A stretch of DNA of 26,789 nucleotides from a virus (IMGVR_UViG_2568526722_000004:1-26789), one strand, 5' to 3'; shown: positions 3,717 to 25,421, counted from the first letter of the stretch. Program-made: numbers and translations. Notes: generated by a model from the letters alone, not told the origin.

Positions 3717-3719
3717 TAC

Positions 3720-4527: not shown

Positions 4528-4542
4528 TTCTTTTCCTTTTGC

Positions 4543-4590
4543 GTTGTTGGGGATAACCAGATTAACCGAATCCTTGTTGTTGGGGAATAA
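4543..4590. repeat. Two direct repeats GTTGTTGGGGA(A)TAAC upstream of the moron gene
   Basis: GTTGTTGGGGATAAC at 4543-4557 and GTTGTTGGGGAATAAC at 4575-4590, 16-48 bp upstream of the start codon at 4527. Confidence 0.5.
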
Positions 4591-4995
4591 CTAGGTCCAC
4601 CTCGCCTGATGTGGCTAAAAGCAGGCACATAACAGCTAAGTATTTTCAACCAGAGAGAATCCTTAGCGTTGTGGTGAATGCGGCTCAGCGCACGCGGGTT
4701 AAGGTTGAGGCTGACAGTCGACCTTCTGTGGATACCCACCCGCCTGGTGTGCAACCTTCGCCAGGCACCGGGAGGCACCCGGCACCACAACTTTATGCTG
4801 TGTGTAGTCTTGGCGGTACCAGCTTGTACCCTTGCTTCCGGCTGGTACCGTCCTTTTTACAAAACAGAGAAGAGCATCACCGGACGACGGGCTCATAACC
4901 CAATCCATCCGGGCGGCAGTCACCGCAGGTGTTCTTCTCTGTTTTGTGGAGAAACTAACCGACCTTGCAGGGTCGATATGATGAGGAGCAGCAAA

Positions 4996-5358
4996 ATGGC
5001 TAGCGAACGCAGTACTGATGTGCAGGCATTTATCGGGGAGCTGGACGGCGGCGTATTTGAAACCAAAATCGGCGCAGTTCTCAGTGAAGTCGCTTCCGGT
5101 GTGATGAACACGAAAACCAAAGGTAAGGTCTCGCTCAACCTGGAAATCGAACCGTTTGATGAGAACCGAGTGAAAATCAAACACAAACTCTCATATGTTC
5201 GCCCGACTAACCGCGGGAAAATTTCCGAAGAAGACACCACCGAAACGCCGATGTATGTCAATCGCGGTGGTCGCCTGACTATTCTGCAGGAAGACCAGGG
5301 ACAGTTACTGACTCTTGCCGGTGAACCTGACGGAAAACTCCGCGCAGCAGGTCGTTAA
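4996..5358 (+). CDS. Hypothetical prophage protein (yfdP-like position)
   Basis: 120-aa ORF from the ATG at 4996 with AGGAG RBS; the longer track ORF 4678..5358 has an implausible GC-rich, non-protein-like N-terminal part. Confidence 0.5.
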   Translation: MASERSTDVQAFIGELDGGVFETKIGAVLSEVASGVMNTKTKGKVSLNLEIEPFDENRVKIKHKLSYVRPTNRGKISEEDTTETPMYVNRGGRLTILQEDQGQLLTLAGEPDGKLRAAGR

Positions 5359-5423
5359 TATCGTTTTTAATTAACTGATTATTTATCTCATCACTGAATA
5401 TCTTTATATAGTGAGGACTTATT

Positions 5424-6248
5424 ATGTCTCAGAACTTAGACGCAACCGCAATTAATCAAATCCATGCCCTTATTTCTGCTCAGGGTGTTAATGAAATTAT
5501 CAGTAAGATTGGTGCCGATGCTGTGGCATTGCCTGAGAATTTCCGCATTCATGATCTGGAAAAATTTAATTTAAATCGCTTCCGTTTCCGTGGTGCGCTT
5601 TCCACTGCCAGCATCGATGACTTTACCCGTTATTCTAAAGATCTTGCAGATGAAGGCACCCGCTGCTTTATCGATGCTGATAATATGCGTGCCGTCAGTG
5701 TGCTTAACCTGGGTACTATTGATGAACCAGGTCACGCAGATAACACCGCCACACTCAAACTGAAAAAGACAGCACCGTTCTCTGCTCTGTTGTCTGTTAA
5801 CGGCGAGCGTAACTCCCAGAAGTCACTAGCAGAATGGATTGAAGACTGGGCCGACTATCTTGTGGGCTTTGATGCTAATGGTGACGCTATTCAGGCAACA
5901 AAAGCGGCTGCGGCTGTCCGTAAAATCACGATTGAAGCAAACCAGACCGCTGATTTTGAAGATAATGACTTCAGCGGCAAACGCTCCCTGATGGAGTCTG
6001 TCGAAGCGAAGACCAAAGACATTATGCCAGTGGCATTTGAATTTAAATGCGTTCCGTTTGAAGGTCTGAAAGAACGCCCGTTTAAATTACGCCTCAGTAT
6101 TATCACTGGCGATCGTCCTGTACTGGTTCTGCGCATTATTCAGCTGGAGGCGGTGCAGGAAGAAATGGCTAACGAATTTCGTGATCTGCTTGTTGAGAAA
6201 TTCAAGGACAGCAAAGTAGAAACCTTTATTGGTACTTTCACCGCCTGA
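5424..6248 (+). CDS. yfdQ: Prophage protein, YfdQ-like (274 aa)
   Basis: 274-aa ORF; size and gene order (274/178/120/101 aa) match the yfdQ-yfdR-yfdS-yfdT block of E. coli CPS-53/KplE1 as I recall it; symbol assigned from memory, not verified. Confidence 0.5.
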
Positions 6249-6375
6249 TTTCATTACTGCAAATGCCCCTGCGGGGGCATTTATGGAAACGTAATTTACT
6301 CAATAATCGCCGGATGGTGAGGGATTCTTTTTACCAGAATTCAGCGCGGTGCAGCGCATATACGTGGAGAACAAA

Positions 6376-6912
6376 ATGTCATTTATTAAAACTTTTTCCG
6401 GGAAGCATTTTTATTATGACAGGATAAATAAAGACGACATCGATATTAACGATATCGCGGTTTCCCTTTCAAATATCTGTCGCTTTGCCGGTCATCTTTC
6501 GCACTTCTACAGCGTCGCCCAACATGCGGTTCTTTGCAGCCAGCTGGTGCCGCAGGAATTTGCTTTTGAAGCGTTAATGCATGATGCAACAGAAGCGTAT
6601 TGCCAGGACATTCCCGCACCACTGAAACGCCTTCTTCCTGACTATAAACAAATGGAAGAAAAAATAGACGCCGTAATCCGTGAGAAATACGGGTTACCCC
6701 CAGTTATGAGTACGCCCGTGAAATATGCCGATCTCATCATGCTGGCAACCGAACGCCGCGATCTCGGACTTGATGATGGCTCTTTCTGGCCTGTATTGGA
6801 AGGTATCCCGGCAACAGAGATGTTCAAAGTGATTCCACTGGCTCCAGGCCATGCCTACGGGATGTTTATGGAACGTTTTAACGAGTTATCGGAGTTACGC
6901 AAATGCGCATGA
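6376..6912 (+). CDS. yfdR: HD-domain protein, YfdR-like 5'-deoxynucleotidase
   Basis: 178-aa protein from the ATG at 6376 with GGAGAA RBS; has H..HD-type metal-binding motifs (CRFAGH, MHDATEAY) typical of HD-domain phosphohydrolases. Confidence 0.55.
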   Translation: MSFIKTFSGKHFYYDRINKDDIDINDIAVSLSNICRFAGHLSHFYSVAQHAVLCSQLVPQEFAFEALMHDATEAYCQDIPAPLKRLLPDYKQMEEKIDAVIREKYGLPPVMSTPVKYADLIMLATERRDLGLDDGSFWPVLEGIPATEMFKVIPLAPGHAYGMFMERFNELSELRKCA

Positions 6913-7265
6913 ATGTTTTCGAAATGGAAGGGTTTCTTCGCGGGAAATGTGTACCGCGAGATCTGAAAGTGAACGAAACAAATGCTGAGTACCTGGTACG
7001 TAAATTCGATGCGCTTGAAGCTAAATGTGCAGCACAGGAAAACAAAGTAATACCAGTGTCAACTGAACTGCCACCAGCAAATGAAAGTGTTTTGTTATTC
7101 GATGCTAACGGAGAAGGCTGGCTAATTGGCTGGCGTTCTCTCTGGTACACCTGGGGACAAAAAGAAACCGGAGAATGGCAGTGGACATTTCAGGTCGGGG
7201 ACCTTGAAAACGTCAATATCACTCACTGGGCAGTAATGCCAAAAGCACCGGAGGCTGGAGCATAA
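6903..7265 (+). CDS. yfdS: Prophage protein, YfdS-like
   Basis: 120-aa ORF overlapping the yfdR-like stop; size and order match CPS-53 yfdS from memory. Confidence 0.45.
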   Translation: MRMNVFEMEGFLRGKCVPRDLKVNETNAEYLVRKFDALEAKCAAQENKVIPVSTELPPANESVLLFDANGEGWLIGWRSLWYTWGQKETGEWQWTFQVGDLENVNITHWAVMPKAPEAGA

Positions 7266-7570
7266 TGACCACTTTTACCGACAAAGAACTGATTAAAGAA
7301 ATTAAAGAGCGTATCAGCAGCCTTGACGTGCGAGACGATATTGAGCGCCGTGCTTATGAAATCGCACTCCTATCTCTGGAAGTAGAACCAGATGAACGCG
7401 AAGCTTATGAATTATTCATGGAAAAGCGTTTCGGTGACTTAGTAGATCGTCGGAGAGCAAAAAACGGCGATAACGAATACATGGCATGGGATATGACTCT
7501 CGGTTGGATCGTCTGGCAGCAACGAGCTGGTATCCATTTTTCAACAATGTCACAGCAAGAGGTGAAATAA
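7265..7570 (+). CDS. yfdT: Prophage protein, YfdT-like
   Basis: 101-aa ORF with stop/start overlap on both sides; size and order match CPS-53 yfdT from memory. Confidence 0.45.
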   Translation: MTTFTDKELIKEIKERISSLDVRDDIERRAYEIALLSLEVEPDEREAYELFMEKRFGDLVDRRRAKNGDNEYMAWDMTLGWIVWQQRAGIHFSTMSQQEVK

Positions 7571-7920
7571 TGGAGCCATACAGCCTCACACTCGATGAGG
7601 CCTGTCATTTTCTCAAGATATCCAGACCGACTGCCATTAACTGGATACGCACAGGGCGTCTTCAGGCAACACGCAAAGATCCCACTAAGAATAAATCTCC
7701 TTACCTCACAACACGACAAGCCTGCATTGCGGCTCTTCAGTCTCCGCTGCATACTGTCCAGGTGAGCGCGGGTGATGGCATAACAGAGGAAAGAAAATGT
7801 CACTCTTCCGCAGAGGTGAAATATGGTACGCCAGTTTCACATTGCCGAACGGTAAAAGATTTAAACAGTCTCTTGGAACAAAGGACAAAAGGCAGGCGAC
7901 AGAACTCCATGACAAGCTAA
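7570..7920 (+). CDS. Excisionase-like HTH protein (Xis/AlpA-type)
   Basis: ATG at 7570 with AGGTGA RBS; N-terminal [31 protein letters not shown] is an excisionase-type HTH; sits directly upstream of the integrase; the frame stays open to 7920, overlapping int by 124 nt, so the 3' end is uncertain. Confidence 0.5.
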
Positions 7921-8960
7921 AGGCTGAAGCATGGCGGGTCAGCAAACTTGGTGAAATACCTGATATAACGTTCGAGGAAGCGTGTGTCAGGTGGCTTGAA
8001 GAGAAAGCACATAAAAAATCACTGGACGATGACAAAAGCCGGATCGGATTCTGGCTTCAACATTTCGCAGGAATGCAACTAAGAGACATTACTGAATCAA
8101 AAATTTATTCAGCAATGCAGAAAATGACGAACCGGCGTCATGAGGAAAACTGGAAACTCAGGGCAGAAGCATGCAGAAAAAAAGGGAAACCTGTTCCAGA
8201 ATACACGCCAAAACCAGCGTCCGTTGCAACGAAGGCTACGCATCTTTCATTTATAAAGGCCCTACTAAGAGCCGCAGAGCGTGAATGGAAAATGCTGGAT
8301 AAGGCACCAATTATTAAAGTGCCCCAACCAAAGAATAAACGGATCCGCTGGCTGGAGCCCCATGAAGCACAAAGGCTGATTGATGAATGTCCGGAGCCAT
8401 TAAAGTCTGTTGTTGAATTTGCACTGGCAACAGGCCTAAGACGCTCGAACATCATCAACCTTGAATGGCAACAAATAGATATGCAGCGCCGGGTGGCATG
8501 GATAAACCCGGAAGAGAGTAAATCAAACCGCGCAATTGGCGTTGCGCTGAATGATACTGCATGTCGCGTATTGAAAAAACAAATCGGGAATCATCACCGT
8601 TGGGTATTTGTGTACAAGGAAAGCTGTACCAAACCAGACGGAACGAAAGCGCCAACAGTCAGGAAGATGCGGTATGACGCAAACACAGCCTGGAAAGCGG
8701 CGCTGAGACGGACTGGTATTGATGATTTCAGATTTCACGACTTGAGACACACCTGGGCAAGTTGGCTGGTTCAAGCCGGAGTCCCGTTGTCAGTGTTACA
8801 GGAAATGGGAGGCTGGGAGTCTATCGAAATGGTTCGTCGATATGCTCACCTTGCACCTAATCACCTTACCGAACACGCACGGCAAATAGACTCGATCCTA
8901 AACCCATCGGTCCCAAATTTGTCCCAGTCAAAAAATAAGGAAGGTACTAATGATGTGTAA
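7797..8960 (+). CDS. Tyrosine recombinase, lambdoid phage integrase
   Basis: 387-aa ORF; N-terminus [14 protein letters not shown]... (arm-binding type); C-terminal catalytic region ...[40 protein letters not shown] with the conserved HxxR and Tyr motif; ends 13 nt before a copy of the thrW 3' end. Confidence 0.85.
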
Positions 8961-8972
8961 CTTATTGATTTA

Positions 8973-8990
8973 AATGGTGCGATAATAGGA
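8973..8990. repeat. att core repeat (copy of the thrW 3' end): attR of element A and attL of element B
   Basis: AATGGTGCGATAATAGGA matches 25344-25362 AATGGTGCCGATAATAGGA (18/19, one C missing), same orientation. Confidence 0.7.
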
Positions 8991-9049
8991 ACAAATCAAA
9001 CCACATAACCAATTGATTTCTATTATATTTTTATGTTTTAGTTTTCAAC

Positions 9050-9070
9050 ATACCCCCAAAAGTACCCCCA
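9050..9070. repeat. 21-bp repeat ATACCCCCAAAAGTACCCCCA (candidate integrase arm-type site), copy 1
   Basis: Exact 21-bp direct repeat of 25211-25231; contains an internal TACCCCCA duplication; lies about 60 bp inside the left att core. Confidence 0.6.
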
Positions 9071-9307
9071 TAAGCGCCTGTATGATTAGACTCCGGGAAA
9101 AACATAAAAGCTATTCATTTAAGAGCTTTATGTCTTCATTCACTTTGTCAATTAAGAAAGATATCCAAACGAATAAAATTTCAATTTATTGAAGGCCATG
9201 TCATGTTTTCTATTTCTACAGTTTAAAAGTTTTATCATAACCTTCTGTTAGAACAGAATTAATTAGCAAAAAAACCCCAAGGGCATGAGGTTTTTTATTT
9301 TCCATTG

Positions 9308-10288
9308 TCATGCTAAAGCTCGAGCTACATTTTCTTTGATCGCAATAGCACAAGGAGTTTTGAACTTTTCTTTGCAACAGTGTAATAGCGTATTAATATT
9401 CAAATCAGTTTCAAGAATATTTTTTAGCTCACTCTTTCTTTCCGAGATTAAGGTTGGTTTATCTTTGCATTGTTTGACTATTAAGGCAGTTTCATTAATA
9501 TTCAATTGCTCTATCAATGATTTTATGACAGGCATGACAACTCTATCAGCTAAAAAATGACCATTGATATATTGATAGGCGTTATCTTCTCTCAATCCTT
9601 TATCATATAACTGCTCATAGAATTTATCAGCATCGTATTCATCTTGAATAAGGTTATCAAGTTTTTCTTCAATAACCGCTTTAGATTGCTGCATACTTTC
9701 AAATACAGCATTTTTGATAACAAATTGGTTCGTTAATCGTGGCACAGAAGGAGCAATCGCTTCATGGAAAACTGAGTCATCAAGTCTAACTTGATGCTGT
9801 TTAAGCAATAAAAATTTCTTCAGCACGGGGTAGATCAACCGTGAATACTCTGTAATGTATGCTGTAAAATCGAATTTAATTTCAGTAGCGATCTTTATTT
9901 GAGAAAGACAATACTCAAGGACTTCATGGTGTAACTCGATGCTCTCTTTTGAATATACAAATGTTTGAAAAATAAACTTGTTACTGCAAATTATCTCTGA
10001 GTCTGTACTGTTTTTAGGGCATAAATAATCAAAATCACTATCCATTGCAAATATGGCATATCGATTTGCTCGGCTCATGAATTTTTTTAATACTGGTTTC
10101 CCTTTTGTTCCTTTATTGGTAGGGTTACAAATATCAAAACGTATATCATTATCTTTATCGTTTAATAAGCCTTCCCAGAAAGAAATGTCTTTTAGACCTT
10201 CAACAAAGACAAAGCCATTGTGTCCAGCCATAATACAATATACCTGAAGATATTCTTCGCTAAAATTAATATCCTCAAACTCAGTCAT
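9308..10288 (-). CDS. ariB: AriB-like DUF4435/Toprim protein (PARIS defense system effector)
   Basis: 326-aa ORF overlapping the upstream ATPase gene by 8 nt; N-terminal Toprim-like features (MAGHNGFVFVEGLKD..., acidic AIFAMDSDFDY); low GC; the pairing with an ABC-type ATPase is the PARIS (AriA/AriB) architecture. Confidence 0.6.
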   Translation of the reverse strand: MTEFEDINFSEEYLQVYCIMAGHNGFVFVEGLKDISFWEGLLNDKDNDIRFDICNPTNKGTKGKPVLKKFMSRANRYAIFAMDSDFDYLCPKNSTDSEIICSNKFIFQTFVYSKESIELHHEVLEYCLSQIKIATEIKFDFTAYITEYSRLIYPVLKKFLLLKQHQVRLDDSVFHEAIAPSVPRLTNQFVIKNAVFESMQQSKAVIEEKLDNLIQDEYDADKFYEQLYDKGLREDNAYQYINGHFLADRVVMPVIKSLIEQLNINETALIVKQCKDKPTLISERKSELKNILETDLNINTLLHCCKEKFKTPCAIAIKENVARALA

Positions 10289-11276
10289 GAGAAGATTCCT
10301 TTGAAATATTTTTTATATCTACGAAAGAATCCATCCAGCCTTTCATTAATATTGCAGGACTATGAGTAACAATAATTAACTGACAATTATCGTTAATTGA
10401 TTTGATGGTGCTTATTAATCTTTCTTGCCACGTAAGGTGCAAGGATATTTCTGGCTCATCCATCAACAAGACAGATTCATCCAATGAAGTATTAGCTGTT
10501 TTAATCAGAATATATAACAACTGACGTTCACCTGATGAAAGAAGATTATACCTAATATCTTCACCAGAATCACTCATCTTAATAGAAATGTTACCATTAC
10601 TAAAAGAAACAACTTTGTTACATTCAGCAAATAAATTATTTATAGCTGATTCCAACTTATCCTTTATGAGAATACCTTTAGACTCACTTACTTTGAAAGT
10701 ATTCTTTAACCTTTCTAATTCACCAGCAATTTCCATATCAAGAATTGTGGTGCGCTCACCATCACTTTTTTTGAATTCATAGATGGAATTGGCACTCATA
10801 TTGATAGTTGATATTAACTCAACATTTATTCGCTTAGTGTTTTTAATATTATCACTTACGCTAACAGTTCCCATCCCGAACTCTTTAATTTCAGTGTCTT
10901 CTTTTTTCGATTCAAGCAACTCAATAAGTTCATTTAACTCCTTTATTTCCTTACCCTTTGATTTACCTTTAATACTGTTTTTCTTAAGGTTATTAAGTAG
11001 GTTTAGAAGCTGGACAGAGTCAATTTCGCGAAAATTAACTTTGTGAGTAATTGTGCCTCCATTGGCCAATGTTATTTGAGCCAACGCAGCATTACTTAAA
11101 CTTTCATTTAATTCTTGTTTTAAGAGGGCAAAAACACTTTGAATTATCGTGCTCTTACCTGAGCCATTTTTACCCACTAAAACATTCACATCTTTTAAAC
11201 TCCAATCAATGTCCTTCCGTTTAAAAAGACCTTTGATTGCTATATTTTTGATTATCGTCGCCACTCTCGTATCCAT
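10281..11276 (-). CDS. ariA: AriA-like ABC/AAA_15-21 ATPase (PARIS defense system sensor)
   Basis: 331-aa ORF; Walker A GKNGSGKST, signature-like LSSGERQLL, Walker B LLMDEPE, H-loop IIVTHS; low GC. Confidence 0.65.
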   Translation of the reverse strand: MDTRVATIIKNIAIKGLFKRKDIDWSLKDVNVLVGKNGSGKSTIIQSVFALLKQELNESLSNAALAQITLANGGTITHKVNFREIDSVQLLNLLNNLKKNSIKGKSKGKEIKELNELIELLESKKEDTEIKEFGMGTVSVSDNIKNTKRINVELISTINMSANSIYEFKKSDGERTTILDMEIAGELERLKNTFKVSESKGILIKDKLESAINNLFAECNKVVSFSNGNISIKMSDSGEDIRYNLLSSGERQLLYILIKTANTSLDESVLLMDEPEISLHLTWQERLISTIKSINDNCQLIIVTHSPAILMKGWMDSFVDIKNISKESSHD

Positions 11277-11653
11277 TATTATGAAAGTTGAAATGATTAT
11301 AACATGCTTAGCGTGCGCTTGGCATCTACCCTACAGTTGTTAGCAATAAACTTTATAACACAATGTAACACATTGAATTTAAACACTTAATATCAAATCC
11401 AACGCTAAACATCACGGAACCTGAAAGACTCTTGGCATTCTAGTTAGTACCTACTACGAAACGTTTTGAAAGGTTAAAGTGGACAGTCCGCATCAACTGT
11501 AACTTAAAATGCTCAGTAACGATGCATCTGCATGATTTGCAAAGTATGACAGAACTTCATTTGATGCTTTCACAAATGCGTGCCTGAAGTTTTCTAAAGC
11601 GGCGCGGTTAACTCTTTCTGGCTCAAAACCTTAATAAATCTGTATATCGCGGG

Positions 11654-11880
11654 TTGACACACTTGACACTTTTTCGGGAAAAACCTTAACAAAACTTAAC
11701 CTCCCCTGGCATTTCTAAGCATGGCAACTTGACACTTTTCGCGATTTTTTCGGCTTTTTGACGTGGTAAATCTGGCGAAAGGCCAGTAATGGCGCGGCTT
11801 ACAGCGAGGTTGACACTTTTTCGCGTTCAGAGTGTAAAGTGTCAACCTGGCAAGCTGCTCAACTTGACACTTTTTGATGT
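11654..11880. repeat. Array of TTGACAC(T)TTTT direct repeats plus one inverted copy
   Basis: GTTGACACACTTGACACTTTTTCGGG (~11654-11680), AACTTGACACTTTTCGCG (~11727), GGTTGACACTTTTTCGCG (~11808), inverted AGTGTAAAGTGTCAACC (~11831), AACTTGACACTTTTTGATG (~11862); immediately 3' of the 175-aa HTH gene. Confidence 0.55.
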
Positions 11881-12407
11881 CATTGATGGTCTGATTTTTC
11901 CCATTCAGCTAGGGCGTTTAGCCCGGCTTCACTCCATGATTCCAGTTCATCGGCATAATCACCTGCAACATAGCAGAGTTCGCAACGCAGCATACGAATT
12001 GCCAGCCTGGCATTACCTCGCAAATTGTATTTTTCAAAGTAATGCTGCCCTTCATCATCCTCAAGGCAGATAGCACCATCATCAAGAAAGTGCACTTCCC
12101 AGCCTAATTCCCCGGCTGCATCCAGCACACGCTGCTGTATGCCCTCGTCCGTTGCTGGCGCAGGAATTTTACCGCCTCTGGCCTTAACTGCTTTCCAGAA
12201 CTCGCCCCACGTCATTTCCAGCGTTCTTTCTGGCCACATTTCAGAAATGGTGTCTTTCCCCTGTGCTGGTGGGCTGTTCCGCTGCTCTGTCGCTTCCACA
12301 TCAATTTTTTTGCCAGACATGATCACTTCGCCTTTCTCGATCCAGTCGTAAACTGTCTGGCGGCTTACGCCTTTGTATTTGGCGTATTCGGCTTTACTCA
12401 TCAACAT
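11880..12407 (-). CDS. HTH-domain protein with terminase-small-subunit (Nu1)-like N-terminus; possible packaging or regulatory role
   Basis: 175-aa protein from the ATG at 12407 (GAGGTGA RBS 5 nt upstream); N-terminal MLMSKAEYAKYKGVSRQTVYDWIEKGEV resembles the winged-HTH of small terminase/Nu1-type proteins; the track's longer 202-aa form is an unlikely N-terminal extension. Confidence 0.5.
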   Translation of the reverse strand: MLMSKAEYAKYKGVSRQTVYDWIEKGEVIMSGKKIDVEATEQRNSPPAQGKDTISEMWPERTLEMTWGEFWKAVKARGGKIPAPATDEGIQQRVLDAAGELGWEVHFLDDGAICLEDDEGQHYFEKYNLRGNARLAIRMLRCELCYVAGDYADELESWSEAGLNALAEWEKSDHQ

Positions 12408-12506
12408 GTAGCTCACCTCATGCATATACGATAAAAAATAATTTAATGCGAAAAGGGAATGCGTTGTGGGTATGGAGGAAAGGGGCAATAACCGCCCCTT
12501 ACTGAT

Positions 12507-12779
12507 TCAGTTGCGCCAGGATGGCTGGCTAAGCGTGGTTTTCATTACATCATTGACGACCTGCTTTACGATTTCTGTGTTGGCAGTCGTGCTTTCAACA
12601 TCAACAAAGCCATAATCGCCAATTTCCACCGTCAGGGATTCCAGTTTCTTCCCCAGTGCATCAGGCAACTCTCCACTGAACCGGTGCCGAAGATTTTCCA
12701 CCAGCAAAGCCCTGAATGCCTCGCTGTTCTCTTTTTTCTGCCATAGCTGGCGTTTATCCACTCTGATATTTAATTTCAC
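12507..12779 (-). CDS. Hypothetical protein (90 aa)
   Basis: GTG start at 12779 overlapping the upstream stop (GTGA) and preceded by GAGGTGAGG; second gene of a three-gene operon. Confidence 0.45.
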   Translation of the reverse strand: MKLNIRVDKRQLWQKKENSEAFRALLVENLRHRFSGELPDALGKKLESLTVEIGDYGFVDVESTTANTEIVKQVVNDVMKTTLSQPSWRN

Positions 12780-12943
12780 AGCCTCACCTCTTTAAGTGCC
12801 TTATCCATCAGTTGCCGGGCAATAACATGAATCGACGGTGCCACACCAAGCACAGATTTCTGACGCTTTTCGGCCTGGATACGTTGCAGGGCTTCGATCT
12901 GCCCCCGGGAAAGTAAAACTGGCTTTACTCCGTGATTTTTCAT
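12776..12943 (-). CDS. Small putative DNA-binding protein (55 aa)
   Basis: ATG at 12943 with AAGGGA RBS; MKNHGVKPVLLSRGQIEALQRIQAEKRQKSVLGVAPSIHVIARQLMDKALKEVRL; palindromic operators lie just upstream; the track ORF 12776..13099 has a junk-like N-terminal extension. Confidence 0.45.
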   Translation of the reverse strand: MKNHGVKPVLLSRGQIEALQRIQAEKRQKSVLGVAPSIHVIARQLMDKALKEVRL

Positions 12944-12962
12944 GATGATCCCTTCTGAATGA

Positions 12963-13019
12963 CAATAATTGCAATTATTGCACAAATTGAAATAATACCA
13001 TCGATAATTGCAATAAATG
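12963..13019. promoter_or_regulatory. Palindromic operator candidates upstream of the 55-aa gene
   Basis: Perfect 18-bp palindrome CAATAATTGCAATTATTG (12963-12980) and related GATAATTGCAATAAATG (13003-13019) in an AT-rich region 20-80 bp upstream of the start at 12943. Confidence 0.5.
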
Positions 13020-13221
13020 AAACAAAAAGCATCAATAAACCAACCTTCGGCACTAAATGCTCTGATTTTTCTGCAAAGGTATGGCAGATGTTGCTGCATG
13101 CAAACATAAAGGAAATAGCAGAAGAAACAGCGGGGAGTGAAAAGGGGAAGTTTTTATAAATACACGATTGTCGCCTCACTGCAGGTTAACAGCCACAAAC
13201 CCCATGATAATAACTTGTTAA

Positions 13222-13545
13222 TTATTTCATCAGATTTTTCATTATTTGCGCGATTGAGTACACAAGCAAAAACTCGGCAGCCGCAAGAGTATAAAAAACA
13301 TAGATTCGCTTAGCCCACCGACGATGAAAGAACTCCTCAGCATGGCCGAATGTTCGAGATACAAGCCATGCACCTACTGCACACAGAGCAGGTGCAATGA
13401 GCACAGTTATAAACCAGATTGTGATGCCCATCCCATGCCTACTGATAATAGCCATTGGTATTGCAAAAATGAATGTTAGAGCAGCATTAGCTAATAGAAT
13501 ATCTTTTAAAGTATTTTCAATTAGTTTTTCTAGATTATCTTTCAT
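13222..13545 (-). CDS. Small integral membrane protein (about 3 TM helices)
   Basis: 107-aa ORF with hydrophobic segments (LLANAALTFIFAIPMAIISR, ITIWFITVLIAPALCAVGAWLV, IYVFYTLAAAEFLLVYSIAQI); AT-rich; directly downstream of the lipoprotein gene. Confidence 0.55.
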   Translation of the reverse strand: MKDNLEKLIENTLKDILLANAALTFIFAIPMAIISRHGMGITIWFITVLIAPALCAVGAWLVSRTFGHAEEFFHRRWAKRIYVFYTLAAAEFLLVYSIAQIMKNLMK

Positions 13546-13570
13546 CTAATCCCCCCCGTTGAACATTAAT

Positions 13571-13595
13571 ATATAAAAGCCCCTTACTAAGGGGC
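13571..13595 (-). terminator. Intergenic stem-loop with U-run between the lipoprotein and membrane-protein genes (terminator or attenuator)
   Basis: On the minus strand GCCCCT-UAGUA-AGGGGC followed by UUUUAUAUAUU; lies in the 64-bp gap between the two genes. Confidence 0.5.
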
Positions 13596-13609
13596 TTTGC
13601 ACGGATTGT

Positions 13610-14752
13610 TTAAAGGGAACTTTTTTTCGCCCCTTCAATTTCTTCCTGACAAATTTCGTCATTTGTAAATGAGTACTGCAGATAGACATATCCCTGAGTG
13701 GAATTGTTCGCTCTGGCCTCAATAGAGATAGTATCGATATTGTTTTTTAATGGTATTTCTTTTGTTCCCTTCCATGTGGCAGATAAGAAGCGTTCTTTTT
13801 TGTTTAGCCCCCTCATCCAGTCCTGAGGATCTTTCCAAATTGAACCAGCCAGCAAAAAGTCTGTAGTATCAGCCTTTCCATACAGAGAACTTAAAGAATT
13901 ACTCAATTCTTCAAACTTGGATTTAAGAGCCAATCCATAGCTATCAGTATCAATATTTTTTCCTAAAGCCCGTATTTGACATAAACCAGCTTTCGGGGAG
14001 ATCAACAAACCATACATTTCAAAATCTGCGTTTTGCTTCGGTAATTTATCAGAAGTATACAGATTCACACTGTCTGGTAGTGGCTTGAGCTTAGCACCGA
14101 TCATATCTTCGATGTTTTTCTGTGTAAGACCGGCTTCTAAGCCAAACGGACCATCCGCTGGCGGGAGTAAAGGAAGTTGCCCTTGGGAATTTTTGGCTGT
14201 TACTTCCGTTTCAGTACTGTTTTTTGCGTCATTATCTTGTACTGATGCCAGCTTAACTTCAGCGAGGCCATACTTGGCTGTGAGGTACTTTTGCTGCAAC
14301 ATTGCCATGGTCTGCTCTTCAGTGGCAACAGTAGATAATTTTAGTACCTTTATCAGACCACCACTATACTGACGAGCATCAGCTTTGGCTTCGTTGATTT
14401 TTGCATCTAAGCTGTCAATTTCAGTTTTAATTGAAGCCGCAAGCTCAGGATCAGGTTTTACTCCAGATACAACAACATCAATTTTGGCACCTGATTCAAT
14501 AGCATTAATACGCTGTTCCAAAAGCGCTTTATTAGTTCCTAATATTTCCAGTCTTGCTGTTGTCAGATTTTTTATCAACCCACCAGAAAACTGCTGGTCA
14601 ACTTCCTTAGCTGCTGATATTTCACCTTCCGTTTGCGACAGTTCAGCTTTAAGAGCCGCTACTTCCTGTTTCTGTTCTGGAGTTAACTCTTCTGGCCCAC
14701 ATCCGGTTAACATTACTATACCGACTAATGTTGCAATTAAAGTTTTATTCAT
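13610..14752 (-). CDS. Lipoprotein with internal tandem repeat, unknown function
   Basis: 380-aa ORF; signal peptide with lipobox (MNKTLIATLVGIVMLTGCG); two related ~55-aa repeats (…QQFSGGLIKNLTTARLEILGT… and …RQYSGGLIKVLKLSTVATEEQ…); AT-rich. Confidence 0.6.
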   Translation of the reverse strand: MNKTLIATLVGIVMLTGCGPEELTPEQKQEVAALKAELSQTEGEISAAKEVDQQFSGGLIKNLTTARLEILGTNKALLEQRINAIESGAKIDVVVSGVKPDPELAASIKTEIDSLDAKINEAKADARQYSGGLIKVLKLSTVATEEQTMAMLQQKYLTAKYGLAEVKLASVQDNDAKNSTETEVTAKNSQGQLPLLPPADGPFGLEAGLTQKNIEDMIGAKLKPLPDSVNLYTSDKLPKQNADFEMYGLLISPKAGLCQIRALGKNIDTDSYGLALKSKFEELSNSLSSLYGKADTTDFLLAGSIWKDPQDWMRGLNKKERFLSATWKGTKEIPLKNNIDTISIEARANNSTQGYVYLQYSFTNDEICQEEIEGAKKSSL

Positions 14753-14929
14753 ATCCCTATTCCAAATGAAAATATTCAGATTAATCTTATCAGGAACCCA
14801 GATGCAATTGAATATTCATCTGCTCAGCAACGTAGTAGATTTCCTCAGAAAGCATCAACAAAAAACCAAGAGAATCCCATCCTCTGTTACTGACTACAAT
14901 TGTTCTTTTTTTGGTATTTCCTGAATGCC

Positions 14930-15175
14930 TCACCATTGAGCTGATGTAATCCCATCCCGGCATGTGCCCGGCTGATGGTTTCGCGCATCTCCCCCGAAAT
15001 TATCCTGCCTTGCTGGTGGGCGTGCTGCCTTGTGGATACATTCCGCGCGACGTTTTGCCGCCTGTTCCCGTGCCTTGTCATCATTCGCCAGCATGATGAC
15101 CTCAGCCCACCGCGCCGCCGCTCTCCGGTACAGACCACGCGCTTCCAGTGCTTCCGCTTTGCTGTCGTGAATCAT
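14930..15175 (-). CDS. PerC-family transcriptional regulator-like protein
   Basis: 81-aa ORF with ATGA overlap to the upstream gene; MIHDSKAEALEARGLYRRAAARWAEVIM... resembles PerC/Pch-type proteins. Confidence 0.5.
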   Translation of the reverse strand: MIHDSKAEALEARGLYRRAAARWAEVIMLANDDKAREQAAKRRAECIHKAARPPARQDNFGGDARNHQPGTCRDGITSAQW

Positions 15176-15684
15176 GCGCCTATTGTCTCCTTTGCTGCCC
15201 GGCGCTGGCGTTTGCGCTTCTCATTCAGCGCCACCAGCCGCGTTTCTGCGTCCTGTTGTTCCTGTGGTGTCACCTCGCCGCACGGCTGGCCTTTCAGGTC
15301 GTAGCGTACCCCACCAGCCATTAAGGCGCGGTAATAGTGCGGACACTGCGCATAAGATGCCAGCGTCGCACGCAATGCCCCTGGCCCGAATGCCAGCCCC
15401 CTGACGGCGAGATCCTGCATCAGGTCGTCGAATATCCCCACCTTAAGCGGCTTCGGTGCTTCCCGGCTGAATAAGTCAGGCCACAACTCAGTGAGGCGGT
15501 TAACGCGCCTGCGGTTTTTGCGCTGGCGTTTGGTCATATGCCGCCACGGTGTCGCCCCTGTGGGCTTTTGCTGCGCTTTCTGGTTACCGGGCATCACTTT
15601 ATGCGCCGATGTGGTTTTATGATCTTACCCAGCAATAGTGGACACGCGGCTAAGTGAGTAAACTCTCAGTCAGAGGTGACTCAC

Positions 15685-15984
15685 ATGACAAAAACAGTAT
15701 CAACCAGTAAAAAACCCCGTAAACAGCATTCGCCTGAATTTCGCAGTGAAGCCCTGAAGCTTGCTGAACGCATCGGTGTTACTGCCGCAGCCCGTGAACT
15801 CAGCCTGTATGAATCACAACTCTACAACTGGCGCAGTAAACAGCAAAATCAGCAGACGTCTTCTGAACGTGAACTGGAGATGTCTACCGAGATTGCACGT
15901 CTCAAACGCCAGCTGGCAGAACGGGATGAAGAGCTGGCTATCCTCCAAAAGGCCGCGACATACTTCGCGAAGCGCCTGAAATGA
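15685..15984 (+). CDS. insE: IS3 transposase OrfA (InsE)
   Basis: 99-aa product [32 protein letters not shown]... with AGGTGA RBS; matches IS3 InsE from memory. Confidence 0.9.
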
Positions 15985-16847
15985 AGTATGTCTTTATTGA
16001 AAAACATCAGGCTGAGTTCAGCATCAAAGCAATGTGCCGCGTGCTCCGGGTGGCCCGCAGCGGCTGGTATACGTGGTGTCAGCGGCGGACAAGGATAAGC
16101 ACGCGTCAGCAGTTCCGCCAACACTGCGACAGCGTTGTCCTCGCGGCTTTTACCCGGTCAAAACAGCGTTACGGTGCCCCACGCCTGACGGATGAACTGC
16201 GTGCTCAGGGTTACCCCTTTAACGTAAAAACCGTGGCGGCAAGCCTGCGCCGTCAGGGACTGAGGGCAAAGGCCTCCCGGAAGTTCAGCCCGGTCAGCTA
16301 CCGCGCACACGGCCTGCCTGTGTCAGAAAATCTGTTGGAGCAGGATTTTTACGCCAGTGGCCCGAACCAGAAGTGGGCAGGAGACATCACGTACTTACGT
16401 ACAGATGAAGGCTGGCTGTATCTGGCAGTGGTCATTGACCTGTGGTCACGTGCCGTTATTGGCTGGTCAATGTCGCCACGCATGACGGCGCAACTGGCCT
16501 GCGATGCCCTGCAGATGGCGCTGTGGCGGCGTAAGAGGCCCCGGAACGTTATCGTTCACACGGACCGTGGAGGCCAGTACTGTTCAGCAGATTATCAGGC
16601 GCAACTGAAGCGGCATAATCTGCGTGGAAGTATGAGCGCAAAAGGTTGCTGCTACGATAATGCCTGCGTGGAAAGCTTCTTTCATTCGCTGAAAGTGGAA
16701 TGTATCCATGGAGAACACTTTATCAGCCGGGAAATAATGCGGGCAACGGTGTTTAATTATATCGAATGTGATTACAATCGGTGGCGGCGGCACAGTTGGT
16801 GTGGCGGCCTCAGTCCGGAACAATTTGAAAACAAGAACCTCGCTTAG
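15981..16847 (+). CDS. insF: IS3 transposase OrfB (InsF), DDE catalytic domain; expressed as OrfAB by -1 frameshift
   Basis: 288-aa ORF overlapping the orfA stop (ATGA); DDE-type integrase core (…HTDRGGQY…, …[11 protein letters not shown]…). Confidence 0.9.
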
Positions 16848-16982
16848 GCCTGTGTCCATATTACGTGGGTAGGATCATTATCCTGCTCCTGCGCCGCCTG
16901 CGTCGTTTTCTGCGGCGTGCCGTAAATGCCTTTCGGTTTTCTGTTAATGGTCAGCTTAGTCATGCTTTGCCCCATCGTTACA

Positions 16983-17316
16983 ACTGTCTACCAACTGTCT
17001 ACCGATATAATTGTTTGATTTATTTAATGTTATTAATACATAACAAAAAAACAATCTGCAAACTGTCTACCAACTCTCTACAGTATTAATACATTGATAA
17101 TTAATGACTTTTACTAAATGGTAGACAGTGTAGATAGTTAAAAGAAAAATTTTAAAAATGAACCCATAACTATCTATTTTTAGATACCCCCGTGGTTTAG
17201 AAATATAAAATAAACTGTCCACCTCTCTACCACATTAAAAATACCTATATAATTCAAAACATTAATTAGTAGATGGTTGGTAGAGGGTTAAGTGTATCTG
17301 TCTACCAACCGTCTAC
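16983..17316. repeat. Iteron-like repeat array in AT-rich DNA downstream of the primase gene (candidate replication origin)
   Basis: CTGTCTACCAACTGTCTACC (16983-17002), CTGTCTACCAACTCTCTAC (17063-17081), inverted GGTAGACAGTGTAGATAG (~17120), CTGTCCACCTCTCTACCAC (~17215), inverted GGTTGGTAGAGGG (~17276), CTGTCTACCAACCGTCTAC (17298-17316). Confidence 0.6.
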
Positions 17317-17344
17317 TTTTAAGTTTCAACTTATAAATTTCGTA

Positions 17345-19150
17345 TCATGTTCTGTCGTTAATGCCTGCCGTTGCTGGTAACCATCCATCAGCATCTTTAT
17401 CTAACAGAACATTTGTGATCGTTCGCCCTTTATCTGGACCTTTAGTGCATTTAGCCCGCTTGTACTCCTTTCCGTACTCAGCCATTGCCCCTGGCATATC
17501 TGTACCAAAGCGTGTCAGTGATACCGGTTTTCCCAGACCATGCGCAGACATATAAGCCAAATAAGCATGATACAGATATCGCCTCGGACTAAATGGCACT
17601 ATTTCTGCATTACCTACTATCATTCCCTCACATTTAACCAACGACATCAGATAACCGCAGAAGTCCACCAGCGAATCACCTTCACGCTTTATCAACAGTG
17701 CTTCTTCTGATTTTTGCTGCTCATAAAGTAGTCTTTTCGCTTCGTCCTGGTCGGCAAATCGTGTAAGCAAATGGCGAATCACTACTGCCAGTTCCCCTTC
17801 TATCTTTTTCGCCAGCATCGGATCGCGTTCGTTCTCTGGTACAACCTCAGAGAAATTAAATATTACTCGTCGACGCGAGATCCCCCCACTACGGTCGCTG
17901 AATGACATGGCATAATTGTTTACTGCCAGCACTACCGCAGGAACGCGCGTGGAATAGGGCGCTTTGTGTTTCGGATCGATAGCCACCTTGTCACCGCCTG
18001 TAATGGCCTTAATCCCAGCACCATCACCTGCGTAGCGGGTCATGTCAGGCATGATAATCAGAGAATATCCCACCACTAACGCTCGTTCCCTCGCGTCTTC
18101 CAGCGCCTTCATGCTCGCCGATACTGTATTGGCCTTACCCGCCAGCATGGTACAAATCTCCGCCATCACACTTTTACCGCTTCCGCCCGGCCCCGTTACC
18201 TCAAGGAATAACTGCCAGTCGTACCGGTTCGCCAGTACCATGAATAATGCCGCCAGTACGCGATCCGCTTTACGAGCATTATCCGCCACCGAACGACGCA
18301 ACCACTTCCAGAAATTCGGCGCATGTGTTGCCAGCGTTTCCCCCTCTTCTGGCGGGCTGAACGGTAATTCACTGGCATTTAACAACCAGTCATTTTTGTT
18401 GTGTTCCCGAAAATTTCCTGTCCTGATATCAAAAACACCGTTACTGAACCCAATAAGATTTCTGTCCGCTCCCCCCATAACAGGTAGACTCAATTTCATT
18501 GTCTCTACGGCAAATTTAATGGCGTTTTGCGAATAACTAATTTCGGCATCAATAAAAATCTTCGCCATAGACCGCTGGAGTTCCTTATCAGATACAGGCT
18601 CCCAAACAATTCCGTTGTAATGGTGAACTACATCAGAATCATCATTTATCGCCAGTGCTCCTCCATAATGTTCAAGTAACACTTCCCCTCTCTGGCTGGC
18701 TCCCATCTGATTTAATGCAGGCTTGGGTAGACCACTATTTTTTGTAGCTAATTTCATCACTGAAACTTCCCCGTGCTCAGCCTGTTCGCGGATCCGTTGC
18801 AGGTAGTCGCGCCAGTTCTCCGGTTCCTGGTCGGTGATACCTTTGTATAATTTCGCCTCCTGTACGCCAGCCAGCGCCAGCTTTTCAGCGATAGTATTGA
18901 TCTGGATTGGCTCTATCTCCCCCGCGATATAGACACGCGCAAAACGGCGTTTCTCGTCAATAATGCGGATATTCGCCAGGTCTGCCAGTTGCTTTGGCCC
19001 CAGGTAAACAGGAGGCACGTTATCGCCGTGTTTTCGTCCTTCACTTTCAATCCAGTGTTGAGCATGGGCGTAAGCATCCATCCCGGCAAAAATGATTACC
19101 TCAGTGAATTTATCCTTCGGCTGATATTTTAGACTCGGTGCGTTTTTCAC
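17345..19150 (-). CDS. Replication primase/helicase-like protein (P4 alpha / D5-type SF3 NTPase family)
   Basis: 601-aa ORF; Walker A in ...LEVTGPGGSGKSVMAE...; last gene of a tightly coupled operon; followed by the iteron array. Confidence 0.7.
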   Translation of the reverse strand: MKNAPSLKYQPKDKFTEVIIFAGMDAYAHAQHWIESEGRKHGDNVPPVYLGPKQLADLANIRIIDEKRRFARVYIAGEIEPIQINTIAEKLALAGVQEAKLYKGITDQEPENWRDYLQRIREQAEHGEVSVMKLATKNSGLPKPALNQMGASQRGEVLLEHYGGALAINDDSDVVHHYNGIVWEPVSDKELQRSMAKIFIDAEISYSQNAIKFAVETMKLSLPVMGGADRNLIGFSNGVFDIRTGNFREHNKNDWLLNASELPFSPPEEGETLATHAPNFWKWLRRSVADNARKADRVLAALFMVLANRYDWQLFLEVTGPGGSGKSVMAEICTMLAGKANTVSASMKALEDARERALVVGYSLIIMPDMTRYAGDGAGIKAITGGDKVAIDPKHKAPYSTRVPAVVLAVNNYAMSFSDRSGGISRRRVIFNFSEVVPENERDPMLAKKIEGELAVVIRHLLTRFADQDEAKRLLYEQQKSEEALLIKREGDSLVDFCGYLMSLVKCEGMIVGNAEIVPFSPRRYLYHAYLAYMSAHGLGKPVSLTRFGTDMPGAMAEYGKEYKRAKCTKGPDKGRTITNVLLDKDADGWLPATAGINDRT

Positions 19151-19437: not shown

Positions 19438-19441
19438 GGTT

Positions 19442-22613: not shown

Positions 22614-22811
22614 TCAGGTAGCTGTTCCGCGTGATTCCGCAATACGCTGATTAATCCACTCGTCAATTTCACTCTCAACGAAAGCAATAGCTCGCGAGCC
22701 AATTTTAACTGATGCAGGAAATTTACCTTGCCCCATAAGGCGATAAATCCATGCCTTGCTATATCCAGTTCTACGCTGAACTTCTGTTAAACGAATAAGC
22801 GTATTTGACAT
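22614..22811 (-). CDS. alpA: AlpA-family phage transcriptional regulator
   Basis: 65-aa ORF: MSNTLIRLTEVQRRTGYSKAWIYRLMGQGKFPASVKIGSRAIAFVESEIDEWINQR, a typical AlpA HTH; sits downstream of a P4-type integrase. Confidence 0.8.
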   Translation of the reverse strand: MSNTLIRLTEVQRRTGYSKAWIYRLMGQGKFPASVKIGSRAIAFVESEIDEWINQRIAESRGTAT

Positions 22812-23964: not shown

Positions 23965-25179
23965 TCACCCGCATTTTCCGAACTCACCATGCACCACATT
24001 TCCGCCATGCTCGAGCGAATCCATATAATCAGCGTACCACTGAAGCATTTCCCGCCGCCCATCCAGATATTGCGCATGGTTGTATGTGCCACGAATTGAG
24101 TTTTTATCGACGTGCGCAAGCTGTGTCTCTATCCACGCGGTGTTATAGCCCTGCTCATGCAAAATGGTGCTCATAGTGTGCCGGAAGCCATGACCAGTAA
24201 CCTTTCCGTTATAGCCGATGCGTTTAAATACTTGGTTTATGCTAGCCTCGCTCATTGTTTTCCTTGGATCATTACGGCCGGGAAACATAAGCGGATAATT
24301 GCCAGTTAGTTCTTTAATCTGCCCAATAAGCGAAAGAGCCTGCTCAGACAAAGGCACTACATGAGGGCGACGCATTTTCATCCGTGAAGCAGGTATCTCC
24401 CAGATAGCCTTGTTGAGATCGATTTCATCCCATAATGCACCGCGCAGTTCGCCAGTCCGCAAACCGGTGATAATCAGTAAACGAGCCGCCATAACAACCA
24501 ATGCACTTCCTGAGTAACTGGACAATGCCTTGAAAAAATCAGGTAATTCTTTGGCTGTGAGGAAAGGATAATGATTAGATTCATGACCTTGCATCGCGCT
24601 GGTGAGATCCGGTGCAGGGTTATACTCAGCACGTCCAGTGACAATTGCATAGCGGAAAACTTCCCCACATCGCTGCCTCACTTTTTTGGCTTTTTCGGTA
24701 GCACCGCGCCCCTCGATGCGCCGCAGCACATTCAGCAGTTCAAGTGGTTTGATTTCGGCGATTGGTTTTTTGCCAATGTAAGGGAACACATCTTTGTTGA
24801 AGGCTTCGAGGATGTCTGAAGCATAACCAGCAGACCATTTTTTTAATTTGCTGCTGTGCCACTCAAGGGCAATATCTTTGAAGGTGTTGTTTAACTGCGT
24901 TTCCCGGGCAATCTTTTCCTCTCGTTTCGCTTCCATCGGATCGATACCCCCAGCGATACCCCTTTTAGCTTCTTCACGTTTTGCACGAGCATCAGCCAAG
25001 GTAACTTCAGGATACACACCTAGTGCTAACAGCTTCTCTTTACCAGCTACACGATACTTGAAGCGCCAATATTTTCCTCCACTAGGTTTTACCAAGAGAT
25101 ACAGACCACCACCATCAGCCAGCTTGTAAGCCTTCTCTTTTGGCTTGGCAGTGTCTATTTGACGGGCATTGAGTTTCAC
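23965..25179 (-). CDS. Tyrosine recombinase, P4-type integrase
   Basis: 404-aa ORF next to and co-oriented with thrW; N-terminal MKLNARQIDTAKPKEKAYKLADGGGLYLLVKPSGGKYWRFKYR... (P4-integrase N-terminal domain type) and C-terminal ...GHGFRHTMSTILHEQGYNTAWIETQLAH...Y catalytic region. Confidence 0.9.
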   Translation of the reverse strand: MKLNARQIDTAKPKEKAYKLADGGGLYLLVKPSGGKYWRFKYRVAGKEKLLALGVYPEVTLADARAKREEAKRGIAGGIDPMEAKREEKIARETQLNNTFKDIALEWHSSKLKKWSAGYASDILEAFNKDVFPYIGKKPIAEIKPLELLNVLRRIEGRGATEKAKKVRQRCGEVFRYAIVTGRAEYNPAPDLTSAMQGHESNHYPFLTAKELPDFFKALSSYSGSALVVMAARLLIITGLRTGELRGALWDEIDLNKAIWEIPASRMKMRRPHVVPLSEQALSLIGQIKELTGNYPLMFPGRNDPRKTMSEASINQVFKRIGYNGKVTGHGFRHTMSTILHEQGYNTAWIETQLAHVDKNSIRGTYNHAQYLDGRREMLQWYADYMDSLEHGGNVVHGEFGKCG

Positions 25180-25343: not shown

Positions 25344-25362
25344 AATGGTGCCGATAATAGGA
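25344..25362. repeat. att core at the thrW 3' end (attL of element A)
   Basis: AATGGTGCCGATAATAGGA overlaps the last 17 nt of the tRNA gene; imperfect direct repeat at 8973-8990. Confidence 0.7.
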
Positions 25363-25421
25363 GTCGAACCTACGACCTTCGCATTACGAATGCGCTGCTC
25401 TACCAACTGAGCTATATCGGC
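25346..25421 (-). tRNA. thrW: tRNA-Thr (anticodon CGU)
   Basis: Reverse complement is GCCGATATAGCTCAGTTGGTAGAGCAGCGCATTCGTAATGCGAAGGTCGTAGGTTCGACTCCTATTATCGGCACCA: 76 nt, cloverleaf-compatible, anticodon loop TTCGTAA, encoded CCA; sits immediately downstream of proA as thrW does in E. coli. Confidence 0.95.

Follow-up and report, generated by a model that had tools for sequence, protein, structure and literature searches.

A probable phage-inducible chromosomal island at tRNA-Thr with a mosaic arm and an exchangeable slot for PARIS-like cargo

The island and its left arm

We analysed one arm of a satellite island carried on 26,789 nucleotides of viral DNA (IMGVR_UViG_2568526722_000004:1-26789), which is referred to below as the window. 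Positions 8981-25362 most probably form a phage-inducible chromosomal island (PICI) of the EcCIMP1 family, inserted in the 3' end of a tRNA-Thr gene (thrW) beside proA, with a mosaic arm that contains a swappable cargo slot occupied by a PARIS-like gene pair. The island is 16.4 kb long including a 1.26-kb IS3. A sequence-only reading of the window had singled out 9000-14900, the island end farthest from the integrase, as an AT-rich and horizontally exchanged accessory or defence hotspot. The features of the arm and of the island frame are as follows.

8981..8990, no strand: attL core GATAATAGGA at the left island end, embedded in a partly duplicated tRNA-Thr 3' end (ATGGTGC-GATAATAGGA)
8991..11648, no strand: variable cargo slot, 32.9% GC; sister islands hold unrelated AT-rich cargos instead
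9050..9070 and 25211-25231, + strand: 21-nt repeat ATACCCCCAAAAGTACCCCCA (two TACCCCCA units), 100% identical copies just inside the island ends
9308..10288, - strand: ariB-like gene, 326-aa DUF4435/Toprim protein; Glu30 and D83-x-D85 invariant in the family
10281..11276, - strand: ariA-like gene, 331-aa ABC ATPase
11296..11325, - strand: sigma-70-like promoter match (ATGCCA-18-TATAAT with TG), the best of the arm, inside the cassette and 20 nt upstream of ariA
11654..11874, + strand: TTGACAC(TTTTT) cluster, five direct copies and one inverted copy within 220 bp; conserved right-hand anchor of the slot
11880..12407, - strand: 175-aa helix-turn-helix (HTH) protein, conserved backbone gene, 49.8% GC; 'MerR family' in RefSeq
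12507..12943, - strand: two small conserved open reading frames (ORFs; 90 aa and about 55 aa), without a family match, annotated in relatives
13222..13545, - strand: predicted membrane protein, 107 aa
13610..14752, - strand: 380-aa lipoprotein, lipobox LTGC, modelled as two helical hairpins followed by an alpha/beta domain
16984..17316, + strand: iterons CTGTCTACCAAC, a tract of 27-35% GC beside the primase gene; putative replication origin
17345..19150, - strand: primase/helicase with D5_N, DUF5906 and Pox_D5
22614..22811, - strand: alpA, Pfam Phage_AlpA 2.4e-19; 81% identical to EcCIMP1 AlpA
23965..25179, - strand: tyrosine integrase, 97% identical to the EcCIMP1 integrase
25346..25421, - strand: tRNA-Thr(CGU), the sole tRNA of the window, which holds the attR core at 25353-25362 and is followed by proA

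The left att site had been correctly placed by the sequence-only reading: the core GATAATAGGA at 8981-8990 has its partner at 25353-25362 inside tRNA-Thr, and it is the reverse complement of the att core TCCTATTATC of EcCIMP1 (PMC11773190). The 21-nt repeat ATACCCCCAAAAGTACCCCCA, which is partly kept in the F6326 island, was also considered as an att site at 9050/25211 and was rejected, the true core being the tRNA-derived GATAATAGGA at 8981/25353. The repeat pair probably represents arm-type sites of the integrase. Between the att copies the order is int, a 267-aa ORF, alpA, antA, an Icd-like region, several small ORFs, DUF4222, the D5_N/DUF5906/Pox_D5 primase, the iteron origin, a ProQ/FinO-family gene, perC and then the flagged arm. 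No capsid, tail, portal, large terminase or lysis family was found among the 20 ORFs scanned, a scan that left small ORFs of the + strand outside. The island thus has the features by which Gram-negative PICIs are recognised, namely an integrase at the end with att repeats, AlpA, a primase with an adjacent origin and a size of about 10-20 kb. We place it in the EcCIMP1 family because of the att core match, the identity of the integrase and AlpA, the gene set, and the lack of structural and lysis genes among those scanned. A P4-like satellite has the integrase, AlpA, the primase and an Icd-like gene in common with this island, but this classification was rejected for want of psu, sid and delta genes; the P4 hallmarks Psu, Delta, Sid and the P4 alpha primase are absent from the Pfam and PHROG matches of the island ORFs.

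EcCIMP1 is the PICI of E. coli MP1, which has been experimentally mobilised by phage Kapi1 and lies at tRNA-Thr between proA and yagU (PMC11773190). Both islands use the same integration site and the same att core (TCCTATTATC/GATAATAGGA) and keep the order int-alpA-antA...primase...perC, and their integrases are 97% and their AlpA proteins 81% identical. In EcCIMP1 the primase is of the TOPRIM/DUF927 type, P22-like ejection proteins are encoded in a block, and the terminal position is taken by a gene of the pRiA4b-ORF3 family. AriAB is absent from EcCIMP1, PADLOC and DefenseFinder detected no defence system there, and there is no nucleotide similarity between the two islands beyond the int-alpA-antA region. 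Of the two, EcCIMP1 is the one for which induction, excision and high-frequency transfer by a helper phage have been demonstrated.

We examined the composition of the arm by a 1-kb sliding GC profile and by likelihood-ratio segmentation over the whole window. In the profile, GC falls from about 46-47% to 32% at about 8.95 kb and remains at 31-33% as far as about 11.4 kb. It is back at 47-52% over 11.6-12.9 kb, lower again (36-44%) over 12.95-14.9 kb, and beyond that climbs to 57-62%. Segmentation gave blocks at 8915-11398 (32.1% GC, with likelihood-ratio statistics of 134 at the left edge and 67 at the right), 11399-14950 (42.5%), 14951-16575 (57.6%), 17005-17419 (29.4%, the iteron origin) and 17420 to the end (48.7%). 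The 2578-bp cargo, at 33.0% GC, lies 6.1 standard deviations below all non-overlapping windows of equal size, the lowest of which has 40.9%. The low GC content is therefore real, significant and far beyond chance, as had been proposed, but it is heterogeneous. The mean over 9000-14900 is indeed 38.3% as compared to 47.9% in the replication and integration core (17345-25231), but 11649-12950 has 48.1% GC and is indistinguishable from that core, and 12951-14900 has 39.2%. The flagged arm consists of two AT-rich blocks with 1.3 kb between them that is core-like in composition. The sharp rise at about 14.95 kb is real, but it leads into perC/proQ (58-61% GC) and then the IS3, and not into the replication and integration core.

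The GC content at third codon positions (GC3) splits the genes cleanly into a low group, with ariB (0.28), ariA (0.30), the membrane-protein gene tm107 (0.32) and the lipoprotein gene lipo380 (0.33), and a group at 0.46-0.68 which holds the HTH gene (0.49), orf90 (0.55), pri (0.48), int (0.46), perC and proQ. In dinucleotide and tetranucleotide signatures the cargo and the lipoprotein module are most alike and are farthest from proA, and the delta* of the cargo from the flanking chromosome is 186. The two kinds of signature agree qualitatively, but the segments are short, the values noisy and they are given little weight.

Two side observations were made on the rest of the window. A 435-aa ORF at 20436-21743 (- strand) has a family match (Icd-like, NF033153) only over its last approximately 48 residues; RefSeq has at this position only a short Icd-like gene, plus YlcI/YnfO genes on the opposite strand, and the ORF may be spurious or an Ash/Icd fusion. 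Positions 1-8980 belong to a lambdoid prophage and hold its integrase end, with a LexA-like repressor, KilA-N, YfdQ and an integrase (7797-8960). This prophage segment is present in 196 genomes and directly abuts the PICI attL, giving a tandem of prophage and satellite at thrW.

The terminal slot and its contents

The terminal slot at 8991-11648 is a genuine exchange hotspot, and its low GC is a property of its contents. Att and the TACCCCCA repeats mark the left edge of the slot, and the conserved TTGACAC cluster marks its right edge. Islands which are 99.9% identical over the right half, 16878-25394 (EC20, F6326, USMARC), lose all similarity left of 11649, and these near-identical cores carry unrelated cargo in the terminal slot. 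The cross-island comparison thus supports the expectation that gene content would vary between otherwise similar islands, for 8991-11648; the region from about 12.2 to 15.6 kb is essentially invariant in close relatives (about 100% identical to EC20), and at 13.0-14.9 kb variation takes the form of the presence or absence of a module in more distant islands. At least eight different slot contents occur in the islands examined. The contents that replace the PARIS-like pair are listed here.

EC20 (locus L004, 4123-5730) and F6326: two hypothetical genes (259 and 275 aa); 57 genomes
ARS-C301 (locus L005, 3925-5417), SCU-104 and DE17: 199-aa ORF and DUF4747 protein, with or without extra small ORFs; 13 genomes
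PD23 and APEC E19019: methyltransferase, DUF262/GmrSD_N protein (PADLOC NsnA 1e-55) and RiboL-PSP HEPN protein
A41: 662-aa protein, annotated 'RNA-binding domain'
WP2-W18: 375-aa ORF and SIR2-family protein
JNU: Orc1/Cdc6-like ATPase
QML220601: small ORFs only
USMARC-51688: IS1-disrupted remnant

The 2.6-kb cargo of the window was found in 20/5426 complete E. coli genomes, always at 99.9% identity or more, including O104:H4 outbreak isolates and strain 55989. The inner arm at 11649-14900 was found in 168/5426, 110 of them at 80% coverage or more. Identity to the EC20 island is about 100% rightward of 12.2 kb, 78-88% over 11.65-12.2 kb and none further left, and this gradient gives the slot edge the pattern of a recombination junction. 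Cassettes are probably swapped by homologous recombination, with crossovers in the conserved inner arm on one side and, on the other, in either the short flank beside att or the chromosomal surroundings that the islands share; most related islands occupy the same thrW site. The route is uncertain, since on the left only about 90 bp of homologous flank lie within the island.

The same cassette also travels between different backbones. In O104:H4 a 100% identical cassette and a 98.7%-identical arm (8957-15620) sit on a different replication module with a DUF927 primase. In E. coli O104:H4 C227-11, of the 2011 outbreak lineage, the AriAB cassette is at 16238-18194 of the extracted locus (L013) in a thrW PICI, and a second integrase and phage baseplate genes follow just past the PICI integrase. 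A cassette with 86.8% identity over 2673 bp is found in the terminal slot of an Enterobacter hormaechei PICI that adjoins proA and has an unrelated interior. The Enterobacter cassette has 32.4% GC, as compared to 52.7% for its island core and 58.4% for the chromosome. The low GC is a trait of the cassettes themselves and persists at 32% where the host chromosome has 58%. Similarly, six of six alternative-cargo loci measured have 33.5-37.8% GC, while the adjoining HTH module has 47.6-48.5% in every island.

The low GC might instead mark a very recent import from a low-GC donor which has yet to ameliorate, rather than an intrinsic property of satellite cargo. GC3 values of 0.28-0.30 are far from E. 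coli usage, the delta* of 186 separates the cargo from the flanking chromosome, and AriB has few homologues (14 clusters at E < 1e-5); all of these would fit such an import. We consider it unlikely, although it is the best surviving of the alternatives to the reading given here. The E. coli and Enterobacter copies are only 86.8% identical (integrases 85%) and yet both have 32-33% GC, which argues for long residence in enterobacterial satellites without amelioration, and the uniformly low GC of the six measured alternatives also speaks against it. We therefore keep the view that low GC is a property of the slot's contents.

How far the slot deserves the name of a defence hotspot is a separate matter. 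Defence-like contents are AriAB, the methylase with DUF262 (NsnA 1e-55) and HEPN proteins, and the SIR2-family gene. On the other side, neither the EC20-type pair nor the DUF4747 pair gave a defence match in PADLOC or Pfam, and none was obtained for slot ORFs of 193 aa and 59 aa. The defence label thus holds for only some slot contents, because several alternative cargos have no defence annotation. Because they sit in a slot that elsewhere holds defence-like genes, the EC20-type and DUF4747 pairs are candidates for unrecognised defence systems. The sequence-only reading of an exchanged accessory or defence hotspot is accordingly upheld for 8991-11648, where unrelated cargos sit on cores about 99.9% identical and a PARIS-like pair is found here, but it does not extend to 11.65-12.95 kb, which is core-like in GC and conserved in all relatives examined.

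The PARIS-like gene pair

Two intact, overlapping ORFs of 331 and 326 aa occupy 76% of the cargo block and are labelled 'AAA family ATPase' and 'DUF4435 domain-containing protein' in RefSeq. The ariA stop and the ariB start overlap by 8 nt (ATGACTGA), and the genes are therefore probably translationally coupled. The promoter upstream of ariA is a consensus match only, because the scan of the region gave 14 sites against 16.6 +/- 3.5 in shuffled sequence, with no excess.

Rousset 2022 (PMC9122126) detected PARIS as adjacent genes with AAA_15 at 32 bits or more, or AAA_21 at 27 bits or more, together with DUF4435 at 27 bits or more. The adjacent ariA and ariB fall under this rule. In Pfam, AriA matches AAA_21 at 2.1e-20 (74.5 bits) and AAA_15 at 1.7e-19 (71.1 bits), and AriB matches DUF4435 at 5.9e-17 (62.6 bits). 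PADLOC, whose models already recognise the compact form of PARIS, scores AriA at 2.6e-43 (146 bits) and AriB at 3.6e-22. The ATPase motifs of AriA are intact, with Walker A GKNGSGKS at 35-42, the signature LSSGE at 246, Walker B VLLMDE at 269 and the H-loop THS at 304, and its best PDB sequence match is AriA (8v45/8ux9, 4e-17). The DUF4435 partner has the Toprim fold, the catalytic Glu (E26 in B185) and the DxD, and AriB is its unique strong fold match, with 9% identity in the structural alignment. These data suggest that the cassette is a compact two-gene PARIS-like system with a predicted role in defence.

Several points weigh against a simple equation with the PARIS system of B185. The similarity of AriA to the solved AriA is confined to Walker A and the C-terminal ABC motifs. 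AriA here has 331 aa as compared to 464 aa in the solved protein, and about 120 residues of the coiled-coil/insertion region are missing; 203 residues separate Walker A from the signature, the Walker B Glu is residue 274 as compared to E393 in B185, and the central region is unaligned. For AriB, searches of the PDB by sequence, with the single protein and with a 15-sequence profile, gave nothing at E <= 1, and the Foldseek TM-score against the solved AriB is just 0.37-0.39. In addition, AriA scores on the PtuA/Septu and retron ATPase models, as is expected within the ATPase superfamily.

These scores bear on the proposal that the ATPase and DUF4435 pair is not an anti-phage system of the PARIS type but an addiction module of the toxin-antitoxin kind, or a member of the Septu/PtuAB, OLD/Gabija-like or retron effector families. 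Such an identity appears improbable to us, and somewhat more so than a recent import of the cargo. By PADLOC, AriA reaches 146 bits against 89 for PtuA and is the best by far; the partner is DUF4435 and not the HNH protein PtuB; AriB is the unique strong fold match; and elsewhere the slot holds the methylase, DUF262 and HEPN genes and SIR2 genes. We therefore retain the PARIS-like assignment.

The comparison with B185 PARIS shows what the compact form keeps and what it lacks. Both have an ABC ATPase gene followed by an adjacent DUF4435/Toprim gene in the variable hotspot of a satellite, and they have the AriB fold, the catalytic Glu, the DxD and intact ATPase motifs in common. They differ in the length of AriA, which here is without the approximately 120 coiled-coil/insertion residues associated with the hexamer and trigger loops, in AriB, which here is not detectably similar by sequence, and in the carrier, which is a P4-like satellite for B185 and a PICI here. 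In B185, the coiled-coil of AriA with insertions IS1 and IS2 builds the hexamer and the trigger-binding loops. The AriA hexamer sequesters AriB; Ocr, the DNA mimic of T7, binds AriA in an ATP-dependent manner and releases AriB, which dimerises and cleaves host tRNA-Lys, so that translation stops, and a phage tRNA can neutralise the system (all PMC11464382).

Because the gene pair, the motifs and the AriB fold are shared, we infer a B185-like logic for the present cassette. By analogy, AriA would keep AriB inactive until a phage trigger, such as an anti-restriction DNA mimic like Ocr, bound AriA in an ATP-dependent manner and freed AriB. The freed AriB would cut a host tRNA, translation would halt and the infection would be aborted. 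In this way the cassette would shield the lysogen against competing phages, and the helper phage indirectly, as has been demonstrated for PARIS on P4 (PMC9122126). Because the AriA region for the hexamer and trigger loops is missing, the cassette may differ from B185 in its assembly state, its trigger and its RNA target. One tentative proposal, which we hold to be possible rather than likely, is that the cassette belongs to a distinct compact PARIS clade, with an AriA without the hexamer-scaffold and Ocr-sensing region and an AriB whose sequence has diverged beyond recognition. A compact AriA of this kind might assemble differently (e.g. as a dimer), answer another phage trigger and release an AriB with another RNA target.

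The inner arm and the place of the slot in satellite biology

Inside the slot boundary, all relatives examined keep 11.65-12.95 kb at about 89-100% identity; the JNU island has a DUF2213 gene in place of the small ORFs. The TTGACAC cluster coincides with the inner edge of the slot and lies close to the 3' end of the HTH gene. The motif has no other occurrence on the + strand of the window, and the position of the cluster is conserved in nine of nine relatives examined. The cluster may be a packaging (pac/cos-like) or operator site. The HTH protein has a weak similarity to small terminases and excisionases that is limited to the HTH (small-terminase PHROG 1.7e-6, from the HTH alone). Its search against the PDB returned chance matches alone, with no Rpp or TerS, and NCBIfam returned a sub-threshold excisionase HTH and nothing else.

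The second AT-rich block, at 39% GC, holds the genes of the membrane protein and the lipoprotein, with a terminator-like hairpin at 13576-13598 after the latter. Neither protein obtained a family assignment in Pfam, PADLOC, PHROG or NCBIfam scans, and the structure model of the lipoprotein gave no functional lead. The pair is absent from the DE17, A41, WP2-W18 and JNU islands, and in DE17, A41 and WP2-W18 orf55 is followed directly by perC. The region at 12.2-15.6 kb is invariant among close relatives. Because the pair is absent as a unit only in distant islands, we regard this block as a second accessory module of slower turnover. Homologues of the lipoprotein occur across Enterobacterales at 59-89% identity, and in int-AlpA-AntA-Ash-primase satellites, found at three different integration sites, a 68%-identical one directly follows the primase on its downstream side. 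The region downstream of pri is an additional accessory region of PICIs, which carries Tai systems (PMC11364771). The lipoprotein homologues share this position in other satellites, whereas here perC and proQ intervene; the text of PMC11364771 makes no mention of lipoproteins, signal peptides or transmembrane segments, and gives no link between Tai and lipoproteins. The lipoprotein and the 107-aa membrane protein could have an envelope-level exclusion or helper-interaction function.

The genes to the right of this module account for the rise in GC.

14887..15175, - strand: perC-family regulator, with an 81-aa ORF at 14930-15175; Pfam PerC 1.2e-22; the GC step-up starts here
15172..15597, - strand: ProQ/FinO-family gene, 5' part cut off by the IS3; 531 nt when intact in relatives
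15621..16877, + strand: IS3 insertion, orfA 15676-15984 and orfB 15981-16847

The IS3 makes up much of the GC-rich block right of the arm. It is absent from about ten otherwise identical (99.9%) islands, and it leaves a ProQ/FinO ORF of 141 aa as compared to 176 aa. The perC locus is marked 'frameshifted' by RefSeq in identical islands, an intact 95-aa gene is present in ARS-C301 and PD23, and the 81-aa ORF keeps the PerC domain.

With both blocks described, the version of the sequence-only reading in which the whole arm from 9.0 to 14.9 kb is one foreign AT-rich block exchanged as a unit can be weighed. The mean GC of 38.3% against 47.9% in the core and the segmentation boundary at about 14950 agree with it, and in O104:H4 the arm 8957-15620 is found together (98.7% identity) beside a different replication module. 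Against this, 11649-12950 has a core-like 48% GC; the EC20 island matches 12.2-15.6 kb at about 100% identity and yet has an unrelated cargo; 168 genomes have the inner arm and 20 the cargo; and the lipoprotein module is gained and lost independently of the terminal cargo. We consider exchange as one block very unlikely. It is hardly credible that the AT-rich stretch is non-coding or in decay, or serves replication or regulation, instead of being functional cargo: AT-rich tracts are common in intergenic DNA and the island origin at 17005-17419 also has about 29% GC, but 76% of the cargo block is taken up by the two intact overlapping ORFs (331 and 326 aa), which have conserved catalytic motifs and are 99.9% identical or more in 20 genomes. 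The arm is thus best described as a terminal exchange slot, a conserved backbone segment and a second module of slower turnover.

This arrangement resembles the defence hotspots known from other satellites. According to PMC11364771, which cites Fillol-Salom 2022, PICIs carry immune systems at their 5' or 3' ends; satellites with identical cores swap cassettes rapidly (PMC13586616); and the defence hotspot of the P4 satellite lies near cos (PMC9122126). As in the hotspots of P4 and of PICI ends, the position here is fixed, the flanks are conserved, unrelated cassettes sit on near-identical cores and identical cassettes on different backbones, and nothing fundamental is different. The uniformly low GC of the cargos (33-38%) and the TTGACAC inner anchor were not found reported in the satellite-hotspot literature cited here. 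The uniformly low GC of the measured cargos, the TTGACAC inner anchor and the compact AriA are modestly new. The understanding of these elements is unchanged, because the satellite hotspot phenomenon and the PARIS family have both already been described. What the island offers is a clean, well-bounded case of satellites shuffling anti-phage genes in a 2.6-kb slot. The interval from att to the TTGACAC cluster is a possible site for mining new defence systems, and the compact AriA is a natural 'minimal' variant with which to ask which parts of PARIS are needed for sensing.

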